Shown: positions 5,796 to 64,000, numbered from the stretch's first letter. The stretch: DNA of 64,000 nucleotides from Aquificaceae bacterium (GCA_041640635.1 JBEPZX010000007.1:11798-75797); one strand, 5' to 3'. Notes: generated from the sequence alone by a model not told the origin. Numbers and translations are program-made.

Positions 5796-7628
5796 ATGCA
5801 AGAGTATAATCCAAAACACATAGAAGGAAAATGGCAAAAACACTGGGAAGAGCAAGGTGTTTTTAAAACACAAGAAGGTGACAGCACACAAAAAATGTAC
5901 GTGCTAGAGATGTTTCCTTATCCATCTGGCAGGATACATATGGGGCATGTGAGAAACTATACCATAGGGGATGCATTATCTAGATACCTAAGACTAAAAG
6001 GTTACAATGTTCTTCATCCTATGGGTTGGGATGCTTTCGGTCTCCCAGCAGAGAATGCTGCTATAAAGCACGGTGTACATCCAGCTGAATGGACATATGA
6101 AAACATAACGTATATGAAAAAACAACTAAAACTACTAGGTTTATCCTACGATTGGGATAGGGAGATAGCAACCTGTAATCCAGAATACTACAAATTCAAC
6201 CAATGGATATTTTTGAGGATGTACGAAAAAGGGCTTGTCTATAGAAAAACAGCAGAGGTTAATTGGTGTCCCAACGACCAGACAGTCTTAGCTAACGAAC
6301 AAGTTATAGATGGAAAGTGCTGGAGATGTTCCACGCCAATAGTTAGAAAAGAAGTCCCTTCTTGGTATATACGCATAACTGCTTATGCGGAAAGGTTGCT
6401 TGAGGACTTAAAGAAACTCGAAGGACACTGGCCAGAAAGAGTTATTGCTCAACAAAGAAACTGGATAGGAAAGTCAGAAGGTGCCACCATAGTGTTTTAT
6501 GTAGATGATATACCCATAGAGGTTTTTACGACTAGACCTGACACTGTTTTTGGGGCTACCTTCTTGGCTTTGGCTCCAGAGCATCCTTTAACCTTAGAAC
6601 TTGCGAAAAAGGGAACTAATTACCAAGCTGTAGCTGAATTTGTAGATAAGATAAAATCAATGTCAACACGTGAACGGGGAACTCTTGCGGAGAAAGAAGG
6701 TGTATTCTTAGGTGTGTATGCTAAAAATCCAGCTAATGGGGAACTGATTCCTGTTTGGACAGTAAACTACGTGCTCTACGAGTATGGAACAGGCGCCATA
6801 ATGGCTGTACCAGCTCATGACCAAAGGGATATGGAATTTGCAAAAAAGTACAATCTTCCAATAAGAGTAGTAATAAAACCTTACTCAGAACACGATTGGA
6901 ACTTAGCTTATGAGGGTGATGGCACTTTAATGAACTCTCATCCTTTTGATAACATGGATTCCAAGAGCGCAAAAAAAGCTATAACTCAGTGGTTAAAAGA
7001 TAAAGGTTTTGGGAACTTTAAGGTGAGCTATAAACTCAGAGATTGGAATATATCAAGACAGAGATACTGGGGAACTCCAATACCTATAATCCATTGTCCA
7101 AACTGTGGCATAGTTCCCGTACCGGAAGAGGACCTTCCCGTCTTGCTTCCTTCCAATGTAAGTATAACTGGGCATGGAAATCCACTTGGAAGTGTTCCAG
7201 AATTTGTGAATGTTAAATGTCCAAAATGTGGAAGTGATGCAAAAAGAGAAACAGATACAATGGACACATTTTTTGACTCTTCTTGGTATTTTCTACGCTT
7301 TTGTGATCCAAAAAACGAAAAACTACCTTTTTCAGAAGAAAAGGTAAATTATTGGATGCCTGTGGATACCTATATAGGTGGTATAGAGCACGCTGTTTTG
7401 CACCTTCTGTATGCAAGATTTTTCCAAAAATTTTTATATGATTTAGGCTTAGTAAAGTATGATGAGCCTTTTAAAAACTTGGTAACCCAAGGTATGTTAC
7501 TAAAGAGATGGGTAAGCATAGGGAATTTCATGTCTTATATGAATTTGATATTAGACGATAATATAGAAAAACTCATCCATATTATAGAGGAGGTATCCAA
7601 TGACAAAGGAATTCGAAATAGGCCTTAA
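5796..7628 (+). CDS. leuS: Leucyl-tRNA synthetase, alpha subunit of a split LeuRS
   Basis: 610 aa, with the HMGH motif ([15 protein letters not shown]) and the editing/CP1 region. It ends just after the NLVTQGM region and before any KMSKS motif, as in the two-subunit alpha/beta LeuRS of Aquifex. No SD precedes the ATG, and TATAAT lies about 10 nt upstream (possibly leaderless). Confidence 0.9.
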
Positions 7629-7926
7629 CCTCATACGTACCGTATCAGGTCAGATGAGTTCCATAATAGAAACTCAAGATAGTTCTTCTGTAAAGAAGGT
7701 TGTTAAATCTATATTTAATCCTATAGTGGCTGCTGCTTATCAAATAAGAGTAGGAGAAGGTCCGAAAAAGGAAGAAATTTTGAATACTCTAATAAGTTTA
7801 GTCAAATTAATGAGAGATTTGGAAGACATAAATGGTATAAAGGTGAAAGCAAAAGATCTACTAAATTTAGTAAAAGATGTAGAAATGGAGCTAAACAATG
7901 CTACAAAAGGAAATGCAACCAGTTAA
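7600..7926 (+). CDS. Hypothetical protein (108 aa)
   Basis: A strong SD (GAGGAGG) sits 7 nt upstream of the ATG. The ORF overlaps the leuS-alpha 3' end by 29 nt and the panB 5' end. No recognisable motif. Confidence 0.45.
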
Positions 7927-8713: not shown

Positions 8714-10409
8714 AACAAAGCTCTTAGAACTTTTTGTTAGGGTTGGTTACATAACCAAGGAGCAGTCTAAAGAAGCACTAACAAAGAAAGAAAAGAATGA
8801 GAGTATTATAAACACGCTCATAAGACTAGGGTTTTTAGACGAGGAGAAATTAATAGAGTTCTATTCGGCTTTCATGCCCAACAAGGTGTGGAAAGGTAAA
8901 CTAGAGGATGTATCGCTTCCTGATAATATTCTAAGAAAAATACCAGAAAGCTTTATAAAAGAGAAGTTGGCTGTTCCTGTTAAGTATCACGAAGACGGAA
9001 AGCTGGAAGTTATTATGCTTAACCCCTATGATCAGTCAATTGTAAACGAAATAAGATTCAGAACAAAGATAAATACAATACTGGCTTATGCAGCACCAAA
9101 GAGTACTATAGAAGCAGCTATTAATAAGCTTTATCCAGAAACAGAAAAAATTCTTGAAGAAATTAACTTAGAAGAAGAGGTAGAAATAGAGTCTCCAGAC
9201 TCCGAAATAAGTGTGGACATAGCACTAAGAGAAAGTGGTGAGGCTCCTATAGTAAAGCTAGGAAATGGTATCATATTTGAAGCCGTTAACTTAGGAGCAT
9301 CAGACATTCATATAGAACCGCAAGAGAAAGAAGTTTTAGTAAGATATAGGGTAGATGGGATTTTAAAAGTATATCATAGATTGCCTTTGCGTGTAAAGGA
9401 TGCCTTAATAGCAAGATTTAAAATAATGGCTAATGTGAAAATAGAGGAGAAGAGGTTACCTCAAGATGGAAGGATACGCATAAGAATTTCCGGCAGGAAG
9501 ATAGATCTGAGATTTTCCACAGTGCCGACTGTATATGGAGAAAAGATTGTTATGAGGATCCAGGAAGCAGAAAAGTACTTAGGTGTAAAGTTGGAAGACT
9601 TAGGTTTTGAGTTAGATGATTTAGAGAAGTTTAGAAAAGCCATATGGACACCTTGGGGAATGGTCTTGGTTACTGGACCTACAGGAAGTGGAAAAACTAC
9701 TACTCTTTACTCTGCATTAATGGAGAGAAATAGCCCAGATGTCAACATAATGACAGCGGAAGATCCAGTAGAAGTATCCATTCCAGGTTTAAATCAGGTT
9801 CATGTTAGAGAGGATATAGGTCTCACATTTGCTAGCGTCTTGAGAGCATTCCTAAGACAAGATCCAGACATAATCCTCATAGGTGAGATAAGGGATAAAG
9901 AAACAGCTGAAATTGGAATAAAGGCTGCTTTAACTGGGCACTTGGTATTCTCCACTCTGCACACAAACGATGCTCCATCTAGCATAACAAGATTAGTCGA
10001 TATGGGTGTAGAACCTTTCTTAGTTGGATCATCAGTGATACTTATAGTAGCACAAAGGTTAGTTAGAAAGCTGTGTCCCAAATGTAAAAAGCCTGCTGAC
10101 ATACCAAAAGAAGCACTTTTTAGATTAGGTGTTATAAACAATCTGGACGAAGATATAACCATATATACTCATAGTCCTGAAGGATGTGATTTTTGCAAAG
10201 GCAGTGGTTACAAGGGTAGAACAGCTGTTCATGAGTTGCTCGAAGTTGATGAAGACATGAGGAGATTGATAGTTAAAGGTGCTACGGCGGAAGATATTAG
10301 AGACTTGGCAAAAAAACAGGGCATGAGAACATTGTATCAGTCTGGTATTCTAAAAGTTAGAAAAGGTTTGACTTCTCTTGAAGAGGTAGAGAGAGTTTTA
10401 GCCAAGTGA
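8706..10409 (+). CDS. pilB: Type IV pilus assembly / type II secretion ATPase (PilB/GspE family)
   Basis: 567 aa. N-terminal T2SSE_N-like domain; Walker A GPTGSGKTTT; Asp and His boxes; tetra-Cys zinc motif (CPKCKK...CDFCKGSG). Confidence 0.85.
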   Translation: MDETKLLELFVRVGYITKEQSKEALTKKEKNESIINTLIRLGFLDEEKLIEFYSAFMPNKVWKGKLEDVSLPDNILRKIPESFIKEKLAVPVKYHEDGKLEVIMLNPYDQSIVNEIRFRTKINTILAYAAPKSTIEAAINKLYPETEKILEEINLEEEVEIESPDSEISVDIALRESGEAPIVKLGNGIIFEAVNLGASDIHIEPQEKEVLVRYRVDGILKVYHRLPLRVKDALIARFKIMANVKIEEKRLPQDGRIRIRISGRKIDLRFSTVPTVYGEKIVMRIQEAEKYLGVKLEDLGFELDDLEKFRKAIWTPWGMVLVTGPTGSGKTTTLYSALMERNSPDVNIMTAEDPVEVSIPGLNQVHVREDIGLTFASVLRAFLRQDPDIILIGEIRDKETAEIGIKAALTGHLVFSTLHTNDAPSSITRLVDMGVEPFLVGSSVILIVAQRLVRKLCPKCKKPADIPKEALFRLGVINNLDEDITIYTHSPEGCDFCKGSGYKGRTAVHELLEVDEDMRRLIVKGATAEDIRDLAKKQGMRTLYQSGILKVRKGLTSLEEVERVLAK

Positions 10410-10471: not shown

Positions 10472-13279
10472 ATGGCATTTTGGAATAAACTACTATCTTT
10501 TAGCAAAAAAGAAAAACAATCCGCTCAGTTCATCATCAAAGCAGGCAATAAAGATTTAATGCTTTGGCTACTGCAAGAAATGGAGCCAAGCTTAGATGAG
10601 CGTATAGAAGAGTTTTGGATAGAAACTGTAGGCATATCTGACGATGGTTATTGGATATTAGTTGGAAGAAGACATGGTATCATTCAACTTTATGATTGGA
10701 AAGGACGCCTGCATAAGCTTCCATCAAGGCCCCCAGCTCAGGTTATTTCAGACGTGGTATTTAACAAACGATTTCTTGGACTTTTGACACCTCCATACTT
10801 GGTTGTTTACTTCATGGAAGACCCAAGAAAGCCAAACACATGGCGAAGCTTTAAGCTTTCTCAGGAAGGTATTAGACCTTCCGTAGGTTTAGACATAAAA
10901 GATGGAATCTTAGCTTTTGGTGTTGTGGGGGAACGCATATACACTATAGACCTAAATTCAGATTTAACATTGCAAACGGTAGATTTTAAAAGCACCTTTA
11001 GCTACAAGGACGCGGATATAGGGGAGCTCAAAACTTTAAAGATCCTCGACGCTTCGAGAATGTTTCTCTCTGGGACGAGGGGATGCGCCATATATAGCTT
11101 TTCGGGAAACCTTCAAAATGTGTTACCAATAGAAGCTATGAAAGCCGTATGCTTAAAAGGTGATAACCTTTACCTTGGCAATGGCAATCAACTTGTTATT
11201 TATAACCACCATCTTGGTACGGACCTTCAAAAAATAGAAACACCCATAAATATTTCCTACATTGATATAGATCCATCCGAAAGTTTTGCCTTCCTGGCGG
11301 ATGCCGAAAGTAACAGAATGGGAATAGTTGATCTTAAGAGTTCTAGTTTCTTAGAAACAATAGAAGGTTTCGGCAATTCCATTGTAAGAATTAGTCCTGA
11401 TGGAACTCTATACACGTCTTACTATATAGAAAACCAGGACATAAAGCTTTACTATCTTGCAAAACTCAATAGTAATTTAATAGACTTTTGGTATCCTAAA
11501 GATAGACAAAACCAAATTTTAAAAAATGCAAAAGAATTATACAAGAACTTACTAAAGAAACTCAAAGCCTCAAAAGATTTAAAAGATCTGGAAAATATAC
11601 AAGAATATCAAACCCTACTATCCATGGATCTACCCATAAGGGAGTTAAGAGAAATTATTGAGGAAACTCATAGTGCACTTGAGAACAGGCGACTAGAAAT
11701 ATTCATAGAATCCGTAAGAGAGAAAATAAATCAAGGTAATGTAACTAAAGAGGATTTAAGAGAGGTTGAAAATAAACTAAAGATTAAACCAATAAAAGAG
11801 CTTGAAGACTTAAAAGCAGATTTAATAAATTTCTTCGAAAAAAGTCTTGAAGAAAAGTTAAAAGACATGGAAAATATGCTATCAAACACACAAATATTAT
11901 CTTTCCAAGAAGCCGAAACCTTGCCTGAAATAAGAAAGTTACGCGAGTTTATAGCTTCTTTACCTAAAGAGATATACCAAAGAGGTCAGGAAAGATTGTC
12001 TAAGATCTTGAGTGAAAAACTAATAAAGTACAGATTTGAAAGATTCAAAATAACTCTGGACAAAGACAGAATTGTTTTTGGTGAGGTAGATTTTCCAAGA
12101 TTCTCTGGAGAGAGAAAGAAGCTAAAGTGGAGGATAAGAACGGAAGATAGAATGATCGTAGACAACAAAGAATATGTAAGGCTAGGTTTTGAAAGAGAAG
12201 ATGGCATAATACTAGAACCCAAAAGGTACCCTTCCATTCTAACCGTAGGAGATTTAAAACATACACCAAAATGGTTGAAGAGATACCTTAGACACTTAAA
12301 CAATCTCTACCCTTACCAGGTGTACAAAATGCCTATTATGGTTTCTTACGAGGAGACACCTTGGTTTGTTCAAAACTTGGAGAAGTTTGCTTATCTAATA
12401 AAAGAACAGCTAATTTACAGGGATGGGATAGTTATATTGGAAGGTGATGCCGGAGTAGGTAAAAATTTCTTAGTAGAAGTGTTTGCCATATTGACCAATA
12501 GACCTCTCTATATAATACCTTGCAACTCCAAAATGGAAAAAGAAGACCTTACATTTGTTTACGAGTTTGACCCTCAAAGAGGCACACGTAAAGTGTATTC
12601 CGATTTGGTAAAAGCTCTTCAGACACCAGGAGCAATAGTCTACTTTGATGAAATAAACACCTTACCAGCCTCCTTAGTAAAAATGTTTAATCCACTATTT
12701 GACTACCGAAGGTATCTAGTTCTATCTTCTGGGGAAGTTGTTAAGGCAGAAAAGGATGTAATTTTTGTAGGAGGTATGAATCCACAAAACTATCTTGGTG
12801 TTTCTGAACTTCCACAGGACATAAAATCAAGATCAGATATGCTATTTATAGATTATCCTCCCTTTGAAGACGAAGGAAATATATATCACACAGATGAAGC
12901 TCTTATATTGAGAGACTATGTACCCTCTTTGTCATCTCTGAGCAAAGAAGAGTTTGTTTATGTGTGGCACTACATAATAAACAATATACCTCTGGATATA
13001 CCAAGTAATCTTTTAACAGAAGATGTGAAATATTATGTGCATTTGCTTTTTGAACTCATATCTATAGCTAACGCTATAAGGAAGGCTTATAGATCATACC
13101 AGATGCAACAATCAGAAGAACCTGTAGAGTTTGTTTTTTCTATTAGAGATACTATTAGATGTGCACGGAGATTACAAAAGTATAAGAATAGTAAAAATGT
13201 TGTGTTAGATACAATACTGCCAAAGGTCAGTTCACCATTGGAAAAGGAAATAATTAAGTCTATAGTAGAAAGAGTATGA
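10472..13279 (+). CDS. Large multidomain protein: repetitive beta-rich N-terminus (possible beta-propeller), central coiled coil, and C-terminal MoxR-like AAA+ domain with a non-canonical Walker A (GDAGVGKN)
   Basis: 935 aa. The C-terminal region aligns by eye to MoxR/NorQ/CbbQ: VILEGDAGVGKN / IVYFDEINTLP / FVGGMNPQN / SRSD. The middle ~250 aa are heptad-rich and K/E/L-rich. The N-terminal ~340 aa show repeated G-x-I-Y-x-x-D-L-like beta-strand motifs. Confidence 0.6.
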   Translation: MAFWNKLLSFSKKEKQSAQFIIKAGNKDLMLWLLQEMEPSLDERIEEFWIETVGISDDGYWILVGRRHGIIQLYDWKGRLHKLPSRPPAQVISDVVFNKRFLGLLTPPYLVVYFMEDPRKPNTWRSFKLSQEGIRPSVGLDIKDGILAFGVVGERIYTIDLNSDLTLQTVDFKSTFSYKDADIGELKTLKILDASRMFLSGTRGCAIYSFSGNLQNVLPIEAMKAVCLKGDNLYLGNGNQLVIYNHHLGTDLQKIETPINISYIDIDPSESFAFLADAESNRMGIVDLKSSSFLETIEGFGNSIVRISPDGTLYTSYYIENQDIKLYYLAKLNSNLIDFWYPKDRQNQILKNAKELYKNLLKKLKASKDLKDLENIQEYQTLLSMDLPIRELREIIEETHSALENRRLEIFIESVREKINQGNVTKEDLREVENKLKIKPIKELEDLKADLINFFEKSLEEKLKDMENMLSNTQILSFQEAETLPEIRKLREFIASLPKEIYQRGQERLSKILSEKLIKYRFERFKITLDKDRIVFGEVDFPRFSGERKKLKWRIRTEDRMIVDNKEYVRLGFEREDGIILEPKRYPSILTVGDLKHTPKWLKRYLRHLNNLYPYQVYKMPIMVSYEETPWFVQNLEKFAYLIKEQLIYRDGIVILEGDAGVGKNFLVEVFAILTNRPLYIIPCNSKMEKEDLTFVYEFDPQRGTRKVYSDLVKALQTPGAIVYFDEINTLPASLVKMFNPLFDYRRYLVLSSGEVVKAEKDVIFVGGMNPQNYLGVSELPQDIKSRSDMLFIDYPPFEDEGNIYHTDEALILRDYVPSLSSLSKEEFVYVWHYIINNIPLDIPSNLLTEDVKYYVHLLFELISIANAIRKAYRSYQMQQSEEPVEFVFSIRDTIRCARRLQKYKNSKNVVLDTILPKVSSPLEKEIIKSIVERV

Positions 13280-13294
13280 TTTAATATTTAGTTA

Positions 13295-14653
13295 ATGGGA
13301 AAAACGCTCCTTATTATCAGTTGCAGTGATTTGTTGATTTCCTTCCTATTTTATGGTTTGGATCTCATAAAATTGAGAGTGGACAGGAAAAACATGCTTA
13401 AGCTACCTGGAGCAATCTTTAAAGGAAAGGTAAAGCGGTTGGCAAAAGGTATGGGAGGAGTATTTGTAGATATAGGACTAGAAAAAGACGCTTACCTTCA
13501 AATAAAAGGAGGTTCACTTCCTAAAGTAGGGGAAAGCGTTATTGTTCAAGTAGCCAGAGAACCTATTGGGGATAAGGGAGCCAAACTTTCAGATCACATT
13601 AAGTTAATTGGTAAATACATGGTTTATATACCTCAATGTTACGATATAAAATGCTCTTCTAAAATAGAAAAAGACATCAAAGACAAGCTCATAGAAATGA
13701 TAAGACCTTATATAACAGAAGGAGGTACTATTCTTAGAACGGTATCTGCATCTGCTACAGAGGATGAACTTATAAAAGACATTAACAACCTAGTAAAAGT
13801 TTGGGGAAATATAAAGGAGCTATACCAAAAGAAAAGTGGTATTGGTCTACTTAAACAAGGTTTTAGTGAGTACTTGGATATAATAACTAATCATTGGCAT
13901 GAAATTGATGCTATAGTTGTGGATGACATAGATATATGGAACGAAATAAATACATATCTTGAATCTTTTCATCCACAATTGATGGAAAAAGTAATATATG
14001 CAAAAGACACTGTTACATACATAAAAAGATACGATATACACAATCACATAAATAAAGTGTTAGGTAAGCATGTATGGCTAAGAGGAGGAGGTTATTTGGT
14101 AATAGAAGAAACAGAAGCCCTTACGGTAATAGATGTAAACAGCGGTGAACCTTGTGGGGAGTCTCAGGAAGAAAATGCCGTTGAAACTAATATAGAAGCA
14201 GCCAAAGAAGTGGCTAAACAAATCGTTCTTAGGGATTTAGGTGGTATAATCATTGTGGATTTTATAGACATGAAAAAACAAGAAAACAAAGAGAAAGTTT
14301 TAAAGGTGTTTCAGGAATCCCTCGGAAGTGAATCTTGCAATGTTCATATTTATGGATTTACAAAGTTGGGACTTCTAGAATTGGTAAGGCGTAGAAGTTC
14401 CAAAAGCACGCCTAGAAAACTTTCAAAAACATGCCCATACTGTAAGGGCAAGGGTAGGCTAAAAAGTGAAGAACTTCTGCTTCTCGAACTTGAAAGCGAT
14501 TTAAAAACCATCAGAGCTCGTAAATTAGAAATAGATGTGAACCCACAGCTAGTGAAGTTCGTAAAAGCGTATGTAAAAAAGCTAAGTTTGGAAAATGTAG
14601 AAGTCAAATCAAGAGAAGATATAGAGGTAGGTAAGTATGAGATACACTATTAA
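13295..14653 (+). CDS. rng: Ribonuclease G (RNase E/G family)
   Basis: 452 aa. S1 domain (IFKGKVKRLAKGMGGVFVDIGLEKDAYL) and catalytic DNase-I-like region with VIDVNSGE. Confidence 0.85.
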   Translation: MGKTLLIISCSDLLISFLFYGLDLIKLRVDRKNMLKLPGAIFKGKVKRLAKGMGGVFVDIGLEKDAYLQIKGGSLPKVGESVIVQVAREPIGDKGAKLSDHIKLIGKYMVYIPQCYDIKCSSKIEKDIKDKLIEMIRPYITEGGTILRTVSASATEDELIKDINNLVKVWGNIKELYQKKSGIGLLKQGFSEYLDIITNHWHEIDAIVVDDIDIWNEINTYLESFHPQLMEKVIYAKDTVTYIKRYDIHNHINKVLGKHVWLRGGGYLVIEETEALTVIDVNSGEPCGESQEENAVETNIEAAKEVAKQIVLRDLGGIIIVDFIDMKKQENKEKVLKVFQESLGSESCNVHIYGFTKLGLLELVRRRSSKSTPRKLSKTCPYCKGKGRLKSEELLLLELESDLKTIRARKLEIDVNPQLVKFVKAYVKKLSLENVEVKSREDIEVGKYEIHY

Positions 14654-17013: not shown

Positions 17014-17583
17014 ATGATTGTAGACGCAAGTAATAAACTTATAAGATTGAAAGTTGTATACTATGGCCCAGCTATGTCAGGGAAAACCACAAATTTGGAA
17101 TACTTAGCAAAAAAAGAAGGTATGGATATGTTAAAGATAGACACAGCTGGGGATAGAACATTGGTATTCGATTTTGCGTATAAGAAGGTTCACCTAGATA
17201 GCTTTACAGTTTCTTTCGCTTTTTATACAGTTCCCGGGCAAGAAATTTACAAAGATATAAGGTTGACTGTTTTAAAGGGTGTAGATGCTATTGTTATGGT
17301 ATATGATGCACAAAGAGAAAGACTAGATGAAAATATACGTTTTAAGCATTTGGCAATCTCGGACATTAAAAAGGTAGGAAAAACTATAGAATCCATACCT
17401 GTAGTTTTTCAGTACAACAAAATGGATCTACCAAATGCGTTAGATTTTGAATCTTTAGAAGAAGAACTTAACCAAGAGGGTTATCAATCTATATGTGCAT
17501 CGGCTATAAAAGGTGAAGGGGTTTTAGAAACAGCGTCCTTGATTACAGAAATGCTAATATCTAAATTGTCAAAATTGGTGTAA
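17014..17583 (+). CDS. mglA: MglA-family Ras-like small GTPase
   Basis: 189 aa. Near-collinear match to Myxococcus MglA: KVVYYGPAMSGKTTNLEYL, DRTLVFDF, YTVPGQ, LKGVDAIV, QYNKMDLPNA, SAIKGEGV. Confidence 0.85.
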   Translation: MIVDASNKLIRLKVVYYGPAMSGKTTNLEYLAKKEGMDMLKIDTAGDRTLVFDFAYKKVHLDSFTVSFAFYTVPGQEIYKDIRLTVLKGVDAIVMVYDAQRERLDENIRFKHLAISDIKKVGKTIESIPVVFQYNKMDLPNALDFESLEEELNQEGYQSICASAIKGEGVLETASLITEMLISKLSKLV

Positions 17584-17587
17584 AACT

Positions 17588-19012
17588 ATGTTATCTGGAT
17601 ATACAAAGAGTCAGCAAGAGCTCATAGATATAGTAAATGGATGTCTCCTCAACAAAGTGGGTGTTCTGGATCTTTTTTCTATGAGAACTTCTTTATCTAT
17701 TTATATAGAGCATGGATACGTCTTAGGTTTTTTTGTAGAAGGCATGAGAGACTTACAAGATCAGACTATAAATAGCGAAGCTTTGTTATTTTTCTACATG
17801 GCAGATTTTCTAAATTCACCTTCTGCATTCTTTAGTTTCAGAGATAGAGTAAAAAGTGATATATTCGTATATTTAAGTAGACAAATCCATGTAGAAGAGC
17901 TCATATTACAAGCTCAATTAGCTTCGTCAGAACTCATCTCTCTTCTTGAAAGAATCATTACACCTTATGCCGTCTTAAAGGCTCAGCAGCCATTTTCTGA
18001 AATGAACTTTTTCGATGGAAAAAGTGTTTATGAAATAATTGCAACTTCAAAAGACAGCTTTATAGATACAATAAGAAAACTAAAGTCCCTAATTTCCAAA
18101 GGATTCTTAGATATACATCAATTTTATCACCCTGCAAATGAAAAAAGTGAGCCTCACGTTAGCGTAATAATGCAGGGGGTAGAAGCTAACAAAATAAAGC
18201 TCATATCAATAATGGAAAACTTAGTGCTTGGTAGATTTTCAGGTTTCCTAAGGATAAACATTCATGGAGATTCTGTATATATCTATTATATCAAGGGCAA
18301 ACCCATAGCTTTACATCCTATTAACTATCCAATTTTTGATTTTTTAATTGATGTAAAAGGAGATGCAAAAGTAAGCGCAGTTGAATTAGACGATAGGACT
18401 ACAAAGTTGCTTATATTGAGGCACTTTGGTAATAGGGTTATTTCAGGTATTACGGATAATTTCTTGGAGTTGGGTAAAATACTAATGGGCATTAATATAG
18501 AGAGCAAAAGCGGTATAATTGTTATAAGATCCTCAGGGAACGAAAATTATATACTATACGAAGGTGGAAGGGTTTTAACATTTCTTAAGAAGGGTGAGGA
18601 GGGTATTATAGAAATAATCTCAGATTTGGACATAAAGCACCCATATTGGATAGATGTTATCTTTTTTGACAGTGTGGAAAACATGGATAAAGTCGTTTAC
18701 CTTTCTTTAATAAATATAACTTACGGTATCCTTCTAAGAAGTGGAAATGAGCATATTATAAATAGCGTAAAAAATTATATCGCAGGGTCAGAAAATTTTA
18801 AGTATGAGGAAGGACAAATAAAGTATAGAGGCTTACCTCAAAATACGGACGATGTTGTCGCTTTTCTTTCATTCTTACTGGATATGAGTTATAGGATCTT
18901 AGGTGAGAAAAATCTCGAGGAGGAACTTCACCAATCTTTACAGCCTTACAAAGATGTATTTAATGTTTTAGGCGTTCAAGACTATACAAAATCATTTGTG
19001 GAAGGGTACTAA
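17588..19012 (+). CDS. Hypothetical 474-aa protein with three internal repeats of a DUF4388/PATAN-like module; putative MglA partner
   Basis: Starts 4 nt after the mglA stop. Three repeats fit the pattern h..h..G.L.h..G..hYIYh.G.hh: LDLFSM..LSIYIEHGYVLGFFVEG, LISIMENLVLGRFSGFLRINIHGDSVYIYYIKGKPIA and LGKILMGINIESKSGIIVIRSSGNENYILYEGGRVL. Confidence 0.4.
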   Translation: MLSGYTKSQQELIDIVNGCLLNKVGVLDLFSMRTSLSIYIEHGYVLGFFVEGMRDLQDQTINSEALLFFYMADFLNSPSAFFSFRDRVKSDIFVYLSRQIHVEELILQAQLASSELISLLERIITPYAVLKAQQPFSEMNFFDGKSVYEIIATSKDSFIDTIRKLKSLISKGFLDIHQFYHPANEKSEPHVSVIMQGVEANKIKLISIMENLVLGRFSGFLRINIHGDSVYIYYIKGKPIALHPINYPIFDFLIDVKGDAKVSAVELDDRTTKLLILRHFGNRVISGITDNFLELGKILMGINIESKSGIIVIRSSGNENYILYEGGRVLTFLKKGEEGIIEIISDLDIKHPYWIDVIFFDSVENMDKVVYLSLINITYGILLRSGNEHIINSVKNYIAGSENFKYEEGQIKYRGLPQNTDDVVAFLSFLLDMSYRILGEKNLEEELHQSLQPYKDVFNVLGVQDYTKSFVEGY

Positions 19013-27897: not shown

Positions 27898-29017
27898 AGA
27901 TTTTTCAGACCCTATTTACGGTTTTGTTAGAGCTTATGATCATGAACTTAAGTTAATAGACTCTAAAGTATTTCAAAGGTTAAGGTACATAAGACAATTG
28001 GGAATAGCTTACTTAGTTTTTCCGACAGCGCATCACACTCGCTTTGATCATTCCCTGGGAGTGATGGAGCTTTCAGGAAGAATTTATAAAGCTTTAGGTT
28101 TAAAAGATGAGAGAATTTACCAAATAGTAAGATTAGCTGGACTTTTGCACGATATTGGGCACCCTCCTTTTTCTCATACCACCGAGGTACTACTAGGCGA
28201 CAAAAGTCATGAAGAAATAGGCAAACAGGTGTTAGAGAGTGGGGAAGTAAGAGAACAACTAAAAAGGTGTGGTTTTTATGAAGATGAAATAGATTTAATA
28301 GCGCGAATAGCTTTTAAAAAGCCAAAAAATAAAGAAGAAAAGCTGTTAAGTAGTATAGTAACTGGTGAATTTGGTTCTGATAGGATGGATTATATGCGCA
28401 GAGATGCATACTTTTGTGGAACATCTTACGGATTATTTGATGTTGATAGACTTTTAAACCACATGCAGATCATAGAAAATGAAAAAGTAGTAAGTGCAAG
28501 CGCTTTAAGAACCCTGGAGAGCTTCTTTTTAGGCAGGTACTTTATGTATATTCAAGTTTACTTTCATAAAGTTATAAGGATATTGAGTATACACCTCTTG
28601 GAGTTTATAAGGGAAATCTTTGGTGAAGATTATTTTAAAAAGATGGACCTTTATTTTTCCTTTACAGACAGCCATGTGCTGGCTGAAGCCTTTAAATACT
28701 CTGATAATGTAAGTATGAAACGTGTATTCGAGAGAGAACATTTTAGAGAAGTATTTTTTTCCGAAGATACAAAAGTCTTTGAAGATGTAAAGAACCTTTT
28801 ACTTAGTAAGTTTGATAAAGATAAACTCAGATTTGATGTGTGTAGAAAGAGAATAATAGATGAAGATGTCTACGTGCTCAGAGATGATAAACTCTTTTCC
28901 ATAAGAGAAGTTTCTCCCATACTTAAAAATGCAGGAGAGATAGTTTTATGTAGAGTCTATGCAGATAGATCTATACAGCACGAGGTTAAAAAGTGGTTAT
29001 TGAACTTAGGAGTATAA
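27890..29017 (+). CDS. HD-domain phosphohydrolase, dNTP triphosphohydrolase-like (COG1078-type)
   Basis: HHTRFDHSLGV...LLHDIGHPPFSHTTE; about the size of the Thermus-type dNTPases. Start set at MHKDF (27890). Confidence 0.75.
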   Translation: MHKDFSDPIYGFVRAYDHELKLIDSKVFQRLRYIRQLGIAYLVFPTAHHTRFDHSLGVMELSGRIYKALGLKDERIYQIVRLAGLLHDIGHPPFSHTTEVLLGDKSHEEIGKQVLESGEVREQLKRCGFYEDEIDLIARIAFKKPKNKEEKLLSSIVTGEFGSDRMDYMRRDAYFCGTSYGLFDVDRLLNHMQIIENEKVVSASALRTLESFFLGRYFMYIQVYFHKVIRILSIHLLEFIREIFGEDYFKKMDLYFSFTDSHVLAEAFKYSDNVSMKRVFEREHFREVFFSEDTKVFEDVKNLLLSKFDKDKLRFDVCRKRIIDEDVYVLRDDKLFSIREVSPILKNAGEIVLCRVYADRSIQHEVKKWLLNLGV

Positions 29018-30927
29018 GATTAAGAAACTTAATACTACTTCTGGTTCACACAAACGCCATTGTAGGAATAATCTCTTTGTTTGGTACAACAAGTTTTTTT
29101 TGGTTTTTCTTTTTCGTTTACCTAACAGGTATATTTTTAGATTTCAAAAGCGTTTATCCAATAAGGAGATTAATATTAAATACAATAGGTGTAATACTTT
29201 CCCTATACTTTTTGTCTCGGTTAAGTCTTGAAAACTTGGTGTCTCCTCTGTCAAACACTCTTCTTTTATTGATTGCTATAAAGAGTTTGGAAAAAAAGGA
29301 AATTAGGGATCTGTATCAAATACTTCTTCTTTCTTTATTCGCCGTCTCTCTTTCCACCCTTCACAATTTAAATATAACCTTTTTGATAGTTCTTTTAATC
29401 GAGCTTTTTTTAGGTCTTACATCGTTAATATTCATAAATTTGTACAGAAACGTCGGAGATCAAGTTGTATACATAAGGGATGTGGCTCACTTTTTCCGTG
29501 TTTCCGTTGTATTATTCATCTTGATAGCCACTTTTTCAGTACCCTTCTTCATTGTTCTTCCTAGAAGTCAAAGTCCTATCTTTAGTTTTCTTTCGAAACC
29601 AGATGGCCTCAAATCGGGCATATCGGACAGTGTAAGTCTAGGTAAAGTTGGCGAAATACAGATGGACAATACGGTAGCCTTTAGGGTCTACGGGCTTCCA
29701 GTAGGTTTAGATAGCACGAGACTATATTGGAGAGTTTCGGTATTTGACAAGTACACCGGAAAAGAATGGATAAGCACTAGAGATAATAAAGTGGAAATAC
29801 ATAGAGGAAATGAAAACTCTTTTTCTTACACCATCTTTTTAGAGCCTACTTTTGCAAAGTACCTACCTCTTTTGGATTATCCAGCCGGTGTTACAAATTT
29901 GGAAGGTATAGAAGCCTTGGTTTATATTCAAGAAGGTAATGTATTTAGATTATCAAGAACTATTGACAAACCAATAAAGTATGTAGGATTTTCTAGCGAT
30001 ACACTTTTATACGAAGACCCTCCAGAACACTACCTAGATGTACCTAAAAACATACCCAATAGCATACTAAAGTTGGCTCAAGAAATATCAGAAAACGCAA
30101 AAACATCGCAAGAAAAGGTAAGAAGAGTTGTAGATTACTTTGGCGCAGGTGGATTTTCTTACTCCTTGAGGCTTGAAAAGTATGAAAACGACCCCTTGGA
30201 GTACTTTCTTTTGGTCTCTAAGAAGGGAAATTGTGAATACTACGCTAGTGCTACAGCTCTGCTCTTAAGAATTATGGGAGTACCAGCAAGGGTTGTTGGA
30301 GGCTACAGAGGCGCTATATGGAACAACCTGGGGAATTACTATATAGTTACCAACTCAATGGCTCATGTTTGGGTGGAAGCCTTCGTAAACGGAAGTTGGA
30401 TTAAGCTAGATACTACTCCACCATATGTACCTCCGGGGATAAGAAAGGTTTCCTGGTTTTCTCTTTTGAGCGATGCTGTAATGAGTTTTTGGCTTTCCAA
30501 GGTGGTTGGATACTCAATAGAAGATCAAATCAGCATGCTAACATCATTTAGCAAAAAACTCTCAATTGGTTTTAATAAACATGCGCTTTTGAACACACTG
30601 AAAAATACTTTTTTGGCAATACTGATTATTTCACTTCTATATGTACTTTATATCTTTTTTAGGGGATTAAGGAGAACACCAACAAACGCGTATTATGCAT
30701 TAGTAGGTGTTTTGAAAAAGGAAACTAAAATGCAAGTCGATGCAAATAAACCCCATCAATTACTCAAACAATTAGAGCACACGCCATTAAAAGTATATGC
30801 AGATTACATTGTTAATCTTTATCTAAGATATAAATACTCCCAGTATAGAATATACAATGATGAAATAGAAAAGGCTTATGAAAGCCTTGCAAAGATAAGG
30901 AGAATTATAAAAAGAGAGAATCAGTAA
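28993..30927 (+). CDS. Transglutaminase-like membrane protein (TgpA-type: N-terminal polytopic DUF3488-like region plus transglutaminase core)
   Basis: 644 aa. About 6 N-terminal TM helices; core [29 protein letters not shown]...AHVWVEAF (Cys/His/Asp triad); C-terminal TM. Confidence 0.8.
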
Positions 30928-61936: not shown

Positions 61937-63766
61937 TTACTCTAACATTTCCAGTCTTCTTAAGTAATTTTCCAAGATGAAAGAAAAGGCAAAGGGTAGT
62001 TTGGCAACGCTTTCTATCCTGATGCCTGTTCCTTCGAAATACTCCTCTATGTAGTTTTTTGTTATTCCTAAGCCTACACCTACTATGGGAAGCTTTCCTT
62101 TTAGTTCCCTTATGAGACTCTTTAGGTCAATACCTTTGAGTCCTCTTGTAGGCTCACCATCGGAAAAGAGGATTAGAGTGCCTTTCATACGGTTAGATTT
62201 TGAGAAGTTGTCCAGATCTTCAAAACTAAACATTAAAGCTCTGCCTATATCGGTTGTGCCACCTAAGCTGTTAAAAAGGTTTATCAATTTACCCTTTGCG
62301 GTGCTGTAGTCTTCTGTAAATTCCTTTAACCTGTAAGCTTTGTCGTTGAACACATCTATAGAAAAGGGCATACCTAGTTGATAGAGCACCTCAGAAACAA
62401 GGATTAAGGATCTTACAGCGTTGTCTATCTTTTCCTCTCTTTTCATGGATGAAGATATGTCCATCAGGAGCTTAAAAGCCATGATTTTTCTTTCTGGTAT
62501 TTCTCTTCTTTTGAAGATTTTTCCCCTCTTTATGGGTATTTCCGTAGAGAGTTTTTTTACGTTCATGCGCTTTCCATAAATGTGAGCTCCACCAAAGAAC
62601 TCTTCCTCTACAGGTAGCAAACGCTGAAACTTTCTCTTTAGACTCTCCACGTATGGCAACACGCTTTTTAGGTAGTATCTGTATCTTCCTTGACTTTCTC
62701 CGCTACCTTTTGAATTATTACCACTTGCTGATAACGCACTGGATGATGAGACATCTTCCCAACCTTTGACTATAAAAGTTATGAAACCTTTATGCTCTAC
62801 GTCCACCTCTAAAGTTTTTGGTAAAAAGAAGGACAAGAACTTCAGATCCCTCTCCAGAATATCCATATAAGACATCTGTTTTACGTAATCTCTCATCCAC
62901 TCAGGTAGGGTCTTTAGAGACTTTAGAATTTCTGACACGTCTTCATCAAACAGTTGTGTGGCGCTACTTTGGACGTTTTCTTTTATGAACTCTTGAACCT
63001 TTTGGGGTAGTTTGCTCAAAACATCGGTCATTATCCTTCCTTTGTGTCCATCTTGCCTGGTTTTGCCTTTAGCTTCATCGAGTAAAAGATCTATATAGTT
63101 TAGTTGCTGAGATTTCTCCAAGAGTATCCTGTATTTTCCAAAAATGTCGTTCATAAGTATTTCGTAGGAGTCTCTGTTCTTTGAAGATAGGTAGCGGTCA
63201 ATGTAGTTTCTCAAATCTAAAACCTTCTTCTGTATCTCTGCGTTGGATGTTAGATCTTTACCCAGCCAGAGCCTCAATATGTCCAACACAAACTGGTAAT
63301 GGGGATAAGTAGCATCTTTTAGATTCTCTAAAATCTCTTCGTATCTTTGCCTTATGGCGTATGCACTACTGGGATGGTTGTTTATGAGTAGTTCATCGAC
63401 CTTCATAGACTCAAGCACCGCATACAACACTACAAAACTCGCCGGTGAGTAGCCAAACCTAAAAAATTCCCTCTGTCCAAGACGCCACAAATAAAAGTCA
63501 GAGTTTAACAAGAGTTCTATCTCGTGTCTTAGGGCGTTTATGGTGTAATCTTCCGTTTTTTTTATAAAATCAGTAACGGCAAAGACTATACCTCTTGGTA
63601 TCTTTGCCACATGTGGTATGTCTTCTATTTCCCCCTTCATCCACATTTCCGTTAGTGGCAAAGACTTAGGATCATAACCCGCCCCCCATCCTTCGTAACT
63701 CGGTTGAACCTCTATGTCGTATTCATCACTCAACACTGAACTTATAACTTTCCACTTTTCTTTCAT
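61937..63766 (-). CDS. vWA-domain protein with intact MIDAS motif; NorD/CbbO-like architecture (helical N-region plus C-terminal von Willebrand A)
   Basis: 609 aa. C-terminal IMAFKLLMDISSSM (DxSxS) ... TDIGRAL ... LILFSDGEPT ... PIVGVGLG is a vWA with MIDAS. No AAA+ partner gene adjacent. Confidence 0.65.
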   Translation of the reverse strand: MKEKWKVISSVLSDEYDIEVQPSYEGWGAGYDPKSLPLTEMWMKGEIEDIPHVAKIPRGIVFAVTDFIKKTEDYTINALRHEIELLLNSDFYLWRLGQREFFRFGYSPASFVVLYAVLESMKVDELLINNHPSSAYAIRQRYEEILENLKDATYPHYQFVLDILRLWLGKDLTSNAEIQKKVLDLRNYIDRYLSSKNRDSYEILMNDIFGKYRILLEKSQQLNYIDLLLDEAKGKTRQDGHKGRIMTDVLSKLPQKVQEFIKENVQSSATQLFDEDVSEILKSLKTLPEWMRDYVKQMSYMDILERDLKFLSFFLPKTLEVDVEHKGFITFIVKGWEDVSSSSALSASGNNSKGSGESQGRYRYYLKSVLPYVESLKRKFQRLLPVEEEFFGGAHIYGKRMNVKKLSTEIPIKRGKIFKRREIPERKIMAFKLLMDISSSMKREEKIDNAVRSLILVSEVLYQLGMPFSIDVFNDKAYRLKEFTEDYSTAKGKLINLFNSLGGTTDIGRALMFSFEDLDNFSKSNRMKGTLILFSDGEPTRGLKGIDLKSLIRELKGKLPIVGVGLGITKNYIEEYFEGTGIRIESVAKLPFAFSFILENYLRRLEMLE

Positions 63767-63835: not shown

Positions 63836-64000
63836 AGGAGATACCCACATAGTTCAGATAAAACAGACCAAAGGACATTAGTCCTAAGCTTAAACCATGC
63901 CAACTTTATATCCCACATAGTTCAGATAAAACGGAATGGGTTTAGGGTTAATCTTTCTACGTGATAGCATCCTTTATATCCCACATAGTTCAGATAAAAC
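63836..64000 (-). CRISPR. CRISPR array (truncated by window edge): 3 repeats, 2 spacers; repeat GTTTTATCTGAACTATGTGGGATATAAAG (29 nt, type I-B-like) in canonical minus-strand orientation
   Basis: The + strand motif CTTTATATCCCACATAGTTCAGATAAAAC lies at 63904-63932 and 63972-64000. A degenerate copy (the last 21 nt are identical) lies at 63836-63864. Spacers are 39 nt (63865-63903, 63933-63971). The degenerate repeat at the low-coordinate end implies the leader and cas genes lie beyond nt 64000. Confidence 0.85.

Follow-up and report, generated by a model that had tools for sequence, protein, structure and literature searches.

MoxR-class proteins are among the least understood of the AAA+ families, and systems in which a MoxR-class ATPase works with a vWA partner are already known. 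The closest described examples are CbbQ/CbbO, a Rubisco activase, and NorQ/NorD, which inserts FeB into NO reductase. In structures of the NorQD complex, a finger of the vWA protein sits in the pore formed by the helix-2 inserts of NorQ, which contact it, and the authors of that study proposed that the same finger-in-pore mode applies to AAA+/vWA pairs generally, Midasin included (PMC13036017). Here, we describe a gene from an Aquificaceae bacterium, located at 10472..13279 (+) in a 64,000-nucleotide (nt) stretch of DNA (GCA_041640635.1, JBEPZX010000007.1:11798-75797; hereafter, the window). As delimited by its open reading frame (ORF), 38 clusters of orthologues, and 65 Aquificae loci, the gene encodes a 935-amino acid (aa) protein with WD40, helical, beta, and AAA_5 parts, which we refer to as the target. 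We put at roughly 60% the probability that the target is the motor subunit of a two-protein remodelling machine, composed of an AAA_5 (MoxR/CbbQ/NorQ-type) ATPase and a vWA (MIDAS) protein, the genes for which have been dispersed in Aquificaceae.

The AAA+ module and its P-loop

Judged by its sequence, the C-terminus of the target is a MoxR-type AAA_5 module, to which CbbQ and NorQ are nearest. Pfam AAA_5 (PF07728) matched aa 654-787 with an E-value of 3e-27 and 95.7 bits (against a cut-off of 22), and a sequence search of the PDB with the target returned MoxR-class proteins only, namely CbbQ (5c3c, E 4e-16; 6l1q) and NorQ (9qh4, 9qhd), at E-values of 4e-16 to 1e-6. We also generated an AlphaFold2 (AF2) monomer model from the 38-sequence alignment, with a mean predicted local distance difference test score (pLDDT) of 85.8. 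When the AAA module of this model was searched with Foldseek, CbbQ 6l1q was matched with an E-value of 1.5e-13 and a TM-score (TMt) of 0.75, NorQ gave TMt values of 0.72-0.75, and the overall range for CbbQ and NorQ was 0.72-0.77. A preliminary description of the locus, made from the sequence alone, had assigned this region to the MoxR/NorQ/CbbQ ATPases by eye, and both the profile search and the fold comparison agree with that assignment. In the model, residues 630-935 (12359..13276, +) form a complete AAA+ module, which is divided into a large alpha/beta subdomain (aa 630-815) and a helical lid (aa 816-935), and which carries both a helix-2 insert and a pre-sensor-1 hairpin.

The Walker A motif, GDAGVGKN (aa 658-665; 12443..12466, +), ends in Asn665 (codon AAT, 12464-12466) in place of Ser or Thr, and in the PDB sequence alignments its GKN lies opposite GKS of CbbQ and GKT of NorQ. 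The helix-2 insert, a beta-hairpin (aa 694-710; 12551..12601, +) with modelled strands at 695-700 and 704-709, contains six residues (T694, Y697, E698, G704, T705, and S710) that are invariant in a 17-sequence alignment of orthologues. Next is Walker B, IVYFDE (aa 722-727; 12635..12652, +), whose D726 and E727 are invariant wherever a locus covers the region, and then the pre-sensor-1 beta-hairpin (aa 740-758; 12689..12745, +), with modelled strands at 748-750 and 756-758 and an invariant N.LFDYRR. Sensor 1 (VGGMNPQ, aa 766-772, including N770), the post-sensor-1 loop (aa 773-784), and the Arg finger (KSRSD, aa 785-789, including R787) occupy 12767..12832 (+). They are invariant, and the sensor 1/Arg-finger segment aligns with NPGY...KQRF of CbbQ; the loop itself is predicted to be flexible, with pLDDT below 50 at aa 774-778. 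The sensor 2 arginine, R892 (13145..13147, +), is located in FSIRDTIRCARR, and R892, R896, and R899 are all invariant in the 17-sequence alignment. Its counterpart is also invariant in the family outside Aquificae (R1090 in P0143, a relative considered below). The catalytic set made up of D726/E727, N770, R787, and R892 has been kept, in that it is invariant among the orthologues and aligned to the motifs of CbbQ. The Walker B, sensor 1, and SRSD motifs had been read from the sequence at the right places in the preliminary description, and its GKN P-loop was borne out by the alignments.

The P-loop departs from the canonical GxxxxGK[S/T] only at the residue that follows the lysine (K+1), the Lys itself being retained. 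A protein search yielded 38 orthologous clusters at 37-100% identity, all of them from Aquificaceae/Aquificales (Thermocrinis, Hydrogenobacter, Pampinifervens, Aquifex, and metagenome-assembled genomes [MAGs]), and a genomic scan of one genome per GTDB species identified 67 loci, 65 of which are in Aquificota and the nearest of which is a MAG at 93% identity. GDAG[VT]GKN is found in 38/38 clusters and in 67/67 loci, with the Asn encoded by AAT in the window and by AAC in 66 loci. Given that the Asn is invariant and that both synonymous codons are used, we conclude that it is a selected residue, and its presence throughout these sets rules out the sequencing error that had been considered. Nor is Thr or Ser at K+1 as invariant as was first supposed, since a GKN P-loop is also present in torsinA and in Escherichia coli DnaC, both of which are weak ATPases that are activated by a partner (PMC5628414; bioRxiv 10.1101/2022.06.23.497301).

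A vWA gene beside distant relatives and its homologue in the window

To look beyond the orthologues, the profile of their alignment was searched against 1.84 billion representative proteins, which gave 2404 matches, 137 of them below 1e-30. Outside the Aquificae orthologues, dozens of proteins of ~1060-1230 aa matched from the helical region to the C-terminus. Among the 149 matches listed, those with a P-loop-like G-x4-G-K-x had Asn at K+1 in 73 cases, Asp in 35, and Thr in seven. We also observed a sister group (representatives P0212-P0287) of ~1250-1390-aa AAA_5 proteins, in which the motif is GHAGTGKD, with Asp after the Lys. In the wider-clade relatives, AAA_5 was the only domain that Pfam recognized, and a word-index search with P0143 (1133 aa) returned one relative only. 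P0143 and the window protein share 34% identity across 550 aa (E 9e-87), and when the window family was compared by hhalign with the ~1100-aa relatives, the middle region was matched with a probability of 97.3% and the last propeller blades with 94.9%. Based on these matches, we conclude that the architecture as a whole is common to the clade.

The gene for P0143 is preceded, after a gap of 8 nt, by a gene encoding a 656-aa vWA protein. A similar arrangement is present in the two of the 67 loci that lie outside Aquificota, L066 (labelled Candidatus Peribacteria) and L067, where the reading frames are open only under genetic code 25. Each of these encodes a ~1000-1140-aa protein that ends in a GDAGTGKN AAA_5 module and, directly upstream of it, a large protein in which a transglutaminase-like core is combined with a coiled coil and a vWA/MIDAS domain. 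The genes concerned (L066, 4650-10894; L067, 1218-6102; and those of L081) are intact under code 25 (UGA = Gly) alone, and L066 has a TGA at a conserved Gly of the AAA module. In total, we considered twelve non-Aquificae loci: L066, L067, and L071, plus nine that came from a scan of metagenomes (in which there are at least nine). With L073 too short upstream, and with L075 and L076 giving identical matches and therefore counted once, ten of these are informative. In all ten, the gene just upstream, in the same orientation, encodes a homologous vWA protein, and it is the sole neighbour conserved across the ten. The N-domain of the vWA protein varies by lineage, with an HE[AVI]GH motif in the code-11 non-Aquificae, a transglutaminase core in the code-25 lineages, and RHEIxYLL, in which the second His has been lost, in Aquificaceae.

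By searching the window with the adjacent vWA partners of these other lineages, we identified a probable cognate partner, a 609-aa protein encoded at 61940..63766 (-). Its N-domain (aa 1-335) is helical and includes RHEIELL (63509-63529, -), a degenerate version of a zincin-like motif; a flexible linker containing a hairpin (aa 336-428) connects it to a C-terminal MIDAS-type vWA domain (aa 429-609, or 429-607 in the AF2 model) with DISSS at 62447-62461 (-). Its similarity to the partners found elsewhere is not limited to the vWA fold: the N-domain (E 1e-9) and the linker plus vWA domain (E 1e-14) match the L071 partner collinearly, and aa 8-566 align with the L077 partner (E 7e-27). The preliminary description had implied that the target lacks a vWA partner, which is probably wrong in view of the adjacent vWA gene in the non-Aquificae relatives and of this full-length homologue 49 kb away. 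Pfam identifies the C-terminus as VWA_2 and returned nothing for the zincin-like N-domain. The MIDAS residues D436, S438, S440, T505, and D536 are invariant. In the AF2 model of the partner (pLDDT 82.8), in which the linker is disordered, the best fold matches are the MIDAS domain of Rea1/Midasin (TMt 0.69-0.74) and NorD in NorQD complexes, over ~260-290 columns, as opposed to ~190-200 for generic vWA domains, and the best match in a sequence search of the PDB is again Midasin (E 4e-10). Docking on AAA_5-type rings is known for these two vWA domains (PMC13036017). The partner family comprises 99 clusters, found in Aquificaceae/Aquificales only, with identities of 36-95%, which may be compared with 37-100% for the target. 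Target and partner are both present in Thermocrinis minervae, H. thermophilus, Thermocrinis sp., Aquifex sp., and the MAGs JBEPZA01, JAXSNR01, and RFFP01. On these sequence comparisons, the 609-aa vWA protein is most likely the working partner of the target.

For the genomic context of the vWA gene itself, P0040, which is 95% identical, stood in for the window protein, and no AAA gene was found beside the vWA gene in three loci (L068, L069, and L083). Two further observations were made in the window. CRISPR direct repeats (Rfam CRISPR-DR43) are present at 63904-63932 and 63972-64000 (+), so that an array starts at the edge of the window, beside the start of the vWA gene. In addition, a TgpA-like membrane transglutaminase (TgpA_N and Transglut_core) is encoded at 28993-30927 (+), downstream of a gene for an HD-domain protein and without the usual MoxR and DUF58 genes; it may belong to the system as a dispersed third component or have nothing to do with it.

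Architecture and setting of the target gene

AAA_5 is the sole domain that Pfam recognized in the target, and NCBIfam has no family for it. In the AF2 model, a disordered N-terminal tail (aa 1-18) leads into a canonical seven-bladed WD40-type beta-propeller (aa 19-334; 10526..11473, +), a region in which the preliminary description had already suspected a propeller and in which Pfam gave WD40-like matches in some orthologues, below threshold only. The propeller is followed by a helical module (aa 335-526; 11474..12049, +), with helices of 24-32 residues and pLDDT of 84-92, and then by a small beta domain (aa 527-595, with strands between 527 and 591) and a linker (aa 596-629), which together span 12050..12358 (+). 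Of the "~250-aa coiled coil" described previously, the helical part has therefore been retained, and the remainder is modelled as the small beta domain and linker. Neither Pfam nor the PDB contained a detectable relative of the helical module, for which a PDB sequence search with the middle region gave marginal, chance-like matches, and the same databases yielded no relative of the small beta domain. Two motifs in the latter region, FER.DG..EP.R and ETPWFV.NL, are invariant, and the region is conserved in relatives beyond Aquificae. Mean identity to the window protein is highest in the large AAA subdomain (78%, with 80/186 columns invariant), followed by the propeller (50%), the small beta domain (49%), and the helical region, which is the least conserved (36%). 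The architecture was said at the outset to be unfamiliar, and indeed we found no Pfam or NCBIfam family and no characterized name for the protein as a whole; the family is uncharacterized.

The ORF begins with ATG, 62 nt beyond the stop of pilB (10409), and rng, encoding an Rne/Rng-family ribonuclease, starts at 13295, 15 nt after the ORF ends; its coordinates, its length, and both of its neighbours are as originally claimed. Rfam and tandem-repeat scans detected no RNA family and no tandem repeat inside the gene, and promoter-like and terminator-like sites flanking it were no more numerous than expected from shuffled sequence. Two antisense ORFs with low-complexity translations, one inside the target gene (11986-12303, -; 105 aa) and one inside pilB (9800-10162, -; 120 aa), are most likely spurious. 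Further upstream, at 5796-7926 (+), the ORF for leucyl-tRNA synthetase (LeuRS) ends at 610 aa and is overlapped by a 108-aa ORF (7600-7926) without a Pfam match. We take the 610-aa ORF to resemble the split LeuRS of Aquifex.

We surveyed the neighbourhood by tblastn searches of the 67 loci with the proteins encoded around the target gene in the window, together with clustering of all flanking ORFs, and found no conserved operon around the target across the Aquificae loci surveyed. A block consisting of rng, bamD, rsfS, a lapB-like gene, an mglA-like gene, and a DUF4388 gene lies downstream of the target in 17 loci beyond the window's own lineage. In the window, the last two of these, encoding an MglA-like small Ras-type GTPase and then the DUF4388 protein, are at 17014-19012 (+), and they form a block with rng-bamD-rsfS-lapB-like in the window, in L001, and in the 17 others. 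The neighbours in other clades are a SpoU-type RNA methylase gene; hsp33 and rpsB; dnaG, rpoD, and htpX; or a bioF-like gene, clpX, a TetR regulator gene, uvrA, or pgsA-like plus lplA-like genes. In the complete genome of T. minervae (L085, LT670846.1, 1339947-1354766), the orthologue is located between miaA, after a 1-nt gap, and a MatE gene, with rlmN 1.4 kb and mnmG 2.6 kb downstream. In a distant Aquificales lineage (L063, 6362-9907; L082, 5105-8650 and 8713-9915), UvrB is interrupted by an intein of the LAGLIDADG type, and the gene directly preceding the target orthologue is IS605 OrfB/TnpB-like.

The proposed machine, its alternatives, and related systems

By homology, the AAA modules of the target would assemble into a hexameric ring, in which the side-chain oxygen of Asn (or Asp) would take the place of Ser/Thr as a Mg2+ ligand, resulting in a slow ATPase that is stimulated by its partner. 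The vWA protein would dock on this ring with its finger in the pore, like NorD on NorQ and the MIDAS domain on Midasin, and ATP turnover would then twist or pull the partner, so that the client bound by the MIDAS site is remodelled. Six WD40 propellers, carried by helical arms on one face of the ring, might serve to bind the client or a scaffold, or to hold it in position. Given that the genes are dispersed and that the second His of HExxH has been lost in Aquificaceae, the machine in these bacteria more likely acts in chaperoning or disassembly than in proteolysis.

Several points weigh against the two-protein machine. There is no vWA gene within 10 kb of the target in any Aquificae locus, and the distance from target to partner, which is 49 kb in the window, is ~428 kb in T. 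minervae. Their co-occurrence rests on a handful of genomes, and the vWA protein of the window may serve another MoxR-type ATPase. AF2 models the partner's "finger" (aa 387-422) as a loop and a hairpin, with low confidence. Ring formation, ATPase activity, and the contact of finger and pore are predictions from homologues and from monomer models, and the Asn could reduce hydrolysis to such an extent that the protein is a nucleotide-dependent switch only. Finally, the neighbourhood offers no consistent clue to the client.

A stronger form of the objection from the P-loop is that Asn665 abolishes Mg-ATP hydrolysis altogether, which would make the target either a static scaffold of propeller and helical arms or an ATP-binding switch that performs no mechanical work, that is, the degenerate pseudo-ATPase raised in the preliminary description. 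The Ser/Thr at K+1 is the usual Mg2+ ligand; intrinsic ATPase activity is very low in torsinA and DnaC, the two AAA+ proteins known to have GKN, and their status as true ATPases is a matter of debate (bioRxiv 10.1101/2022.06.23.497301); and the activity of ClpB was lowered when its canonical motif was switched to the torsin-like one, according to work cited in PMC5628414. We nonetheless believe this explanation to be unlikely, since the rest of the catalytic machinery is complete and conservation along the protein peaks in the ATPase core. Neither Aquificae nor the wider clade shows any variation in Walker B Glu, sensor 1, the Arg finger, or sensor 2, the target has retained an Arg finger of its own, unlike torsin, and the alternation of Asn and Asp at K+1 preserves an oxygen ligand. 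Degenerate AAA+ domains, moreover, usually lose several motifs at once. It is also rather improbable that the target acts in Aquificaceae as a stand-alone AAA+ chaperone, with its propeller in the adaptor role of a vWA partner, and that the 609-aa vWA protein is an unrelated paralogue that works with something else. Such a view would account for the fact that the two genes are never linked in Aquificae, vWA domains are common, and the propeller is an obvious candidate for substrate binding. However, the window vWA protein is homologous to the adjacent partners of other lineages over the N-domain and linker in addition to the vWA fold, the vWA domain is of the Midasin/NorD type, and the non-Aquificae proteins have the propeller region yet retain an adjacent partner.

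The position of the gene suggests a different function, namely that of a type IV pilus accessory factor, encoded in an operon with pilB, that aids the assembly or regulation of the pilus motor. The target follows pilB in the same orientation after 62 nt, no site resembling a terminator separates the two genes, pilB reappears ~5 kb downstream in three Hydrogenobaculum-type loci, and a pilC-like T2SSF gene is the convergent neighbour of the orthologue at one locus in a distant Aquificales lineage. This explanation appears very unlikely to us, as pilB is directly upstream in just 2/65 Aquificae loci, the window and its 93%-identical relative, so that the conserved linkage envisaged in the preliminary description is confined to the window's own lineage. 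Other clades carry pgsA/lplA-like genes, TetR, uvrA, clpX, or miaA upstream, and the ten informative non-Aquificae loci conserve the vWA gene alone. Least credible is a role in anti-phage defence or conflict as part of a mobile MoxR-vWA system of the type catalogued by Kaur, Burroughs, Iyer, and Aravind. MoxR-vWA systems with beta-propellers have been described (PMC7159879), and a CRISPR array begins beside the vWA gene of the window; but in the described systems it is the vWA component that bears the propeller, there is also a variable third component, and the P-loop reads GxxxTAKS (PMC7159879), and PADLOC matched neither of our two proteins. The target, furthermore, is a single-copy gene that is conserved vertically across the genera of Aquificaceae, amid housekeeping genes.

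Within the two-protein reading, a more specific proposal can be made, which we offer as an outside chance. The pair may be a prokaryotic, two-chain counterpart of Midasin, in which an AAA_5 ring with WD40 platforms of its own and a Midasin-like MIDAS protein strip factors from, or install them on, a large housekeeping assembly, driven by a partner-gated, slow-stepping GK[N/D] motor, and in which the pair belongs to the core gene set of Aquificaceae and of uncultured, reduced-genome code-25 lineages. The assembly could be the ribosome, as rng, a SpoU-type methylase gene, and miaA/rlmN lie near the target in three clades, or it could be the pilus/envelope machinery. RNA-maturation neighbours (rng, the SpoU-type methylase gene, and miaA) do recur, but by a rough count not above the expectation for a small core genome, and we have not used them as evidence.

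We found the following to be undescribed in the searchable literature: the clade-wide GK[N/D] P-loop, the 630-aa WD40/helical/beta extension of the motor, the Midasin-like partner whose peptidase-like N-domain varies by lineage, and the dispersal of the genes in Aquificaceae. The clade amounts to a natural exchange of the Mg-coordinating Walker A Ser/Thr for Asn/Asp in which the other catalytic residues have been kept, and hence offers a clean system in which to test the K+1 residue, a question that could so far be approached only through torsin and DnaC, both of which have further defects. The Aquificaceae proteins are thermophilic and should lend themselves to structural studies. There is also a methodological point, in that neighbourhood inference limited to Aquificae would have missed the vWA partner and pointed wrongly to pilB.

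How, then, does the pair compare with systems that have already been described? TorsinA and E. coli DnaC share the GxxxxGKN P-loop with the target, and the manner in which a partner switches on these weak ATPases suggests how the target may be regulated. Neither torsin nor DnaC, however, was matched in the PDB sequence search with the target, and torsin, which depends on an activator of the LAP1/LULL1 type, is without an Arg finger of its own, whereas R787 of the target is present and invariant. As these proteins belong to different AAA+ clades and share GKN alone, the likeness is convergent and concerns a single residue.

The MoxR-vWA-transglutaminase (TgpA/YebA) three-gene systems, which Zhang and Aravind reportedly predicted in 2012 to be membrane-proximal degradation systems, resemble the pair described here in that a MoxR-type ATPase occurs with a vWA protein and with a peptidase-like domain, which in our partners is a transglutaminase core in the code-25 lineages and HExxH in others; the window, too, encodes a TgpA-like protein. 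They differ in that the ATPase is a ~300-aa AAA_3 MoxR, the vWA protein is of the DUF58 type, and TgpA is a separate membrane protein, whereas in our system the vWA protein itself carries the peptidase-like domain as a fusion, and the ATPase is of the AAA_5 type with a long N-terminal extension. The Aquificaceae partner, unlike those systems, has lost a metal ligand. The MoxR-vWA ternary conflict systems (of the VMAP, iSTAND, FtsH, or propeller types) likewise have a third component, in contrast to the two conserved genes and ATPase-borne propeller seen here.

The likeness is closest to CbbQ/CbbO and NorQ/NorD, which provide the best sequence and fold matches to the AAA module of the target. 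CbbQ and NorQ have the same helix-2 insert, pre-sensor-1 hairpin, Walker B, and layout of sensor and Arg finger, and CbbO and NorD, like the window partner, consist of an N-domain, a flexible linker, and a C-terminal vWA domain with an intact MIDAS. However, CbbQ and NorQ are ~260-380 aa in length, have GK[ST], and are without an N-terminal extension, whereas the target adds ~630 aa (WD40, helical, and beta) and has GKN, and the P-loop Cys of NorQ, which forms a regulatory disulphide, is Val or Thr in the target family. The N-domain of the window partner is zincin-like, with no likeness to NorD or CbbO that is detectable by sequence. In a further departure from CbbQ/NorQ, the ATPase and vWA genes are apart in Aquificaceae, with rubisco and nor genes absent nearby.

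Midasin/Rea1, a eukaryotic ATPase of ribosome assembly, shares with the target an AAA_5-type module, and its MIDAS domain is the top match, by fold and by sequence, of the partner's vWA domain. Known clients of Midasin, Ytm1 and Rsa4, are WD40 proteins. Midasin itself is a single chain of six concatenated AAA modules with a tethered MIDAS domain, whereas in the system described here a single AAA_5 module is accompanied by a separate vWA protein, and it is the ATPase to which a WD40 propeller is fused.

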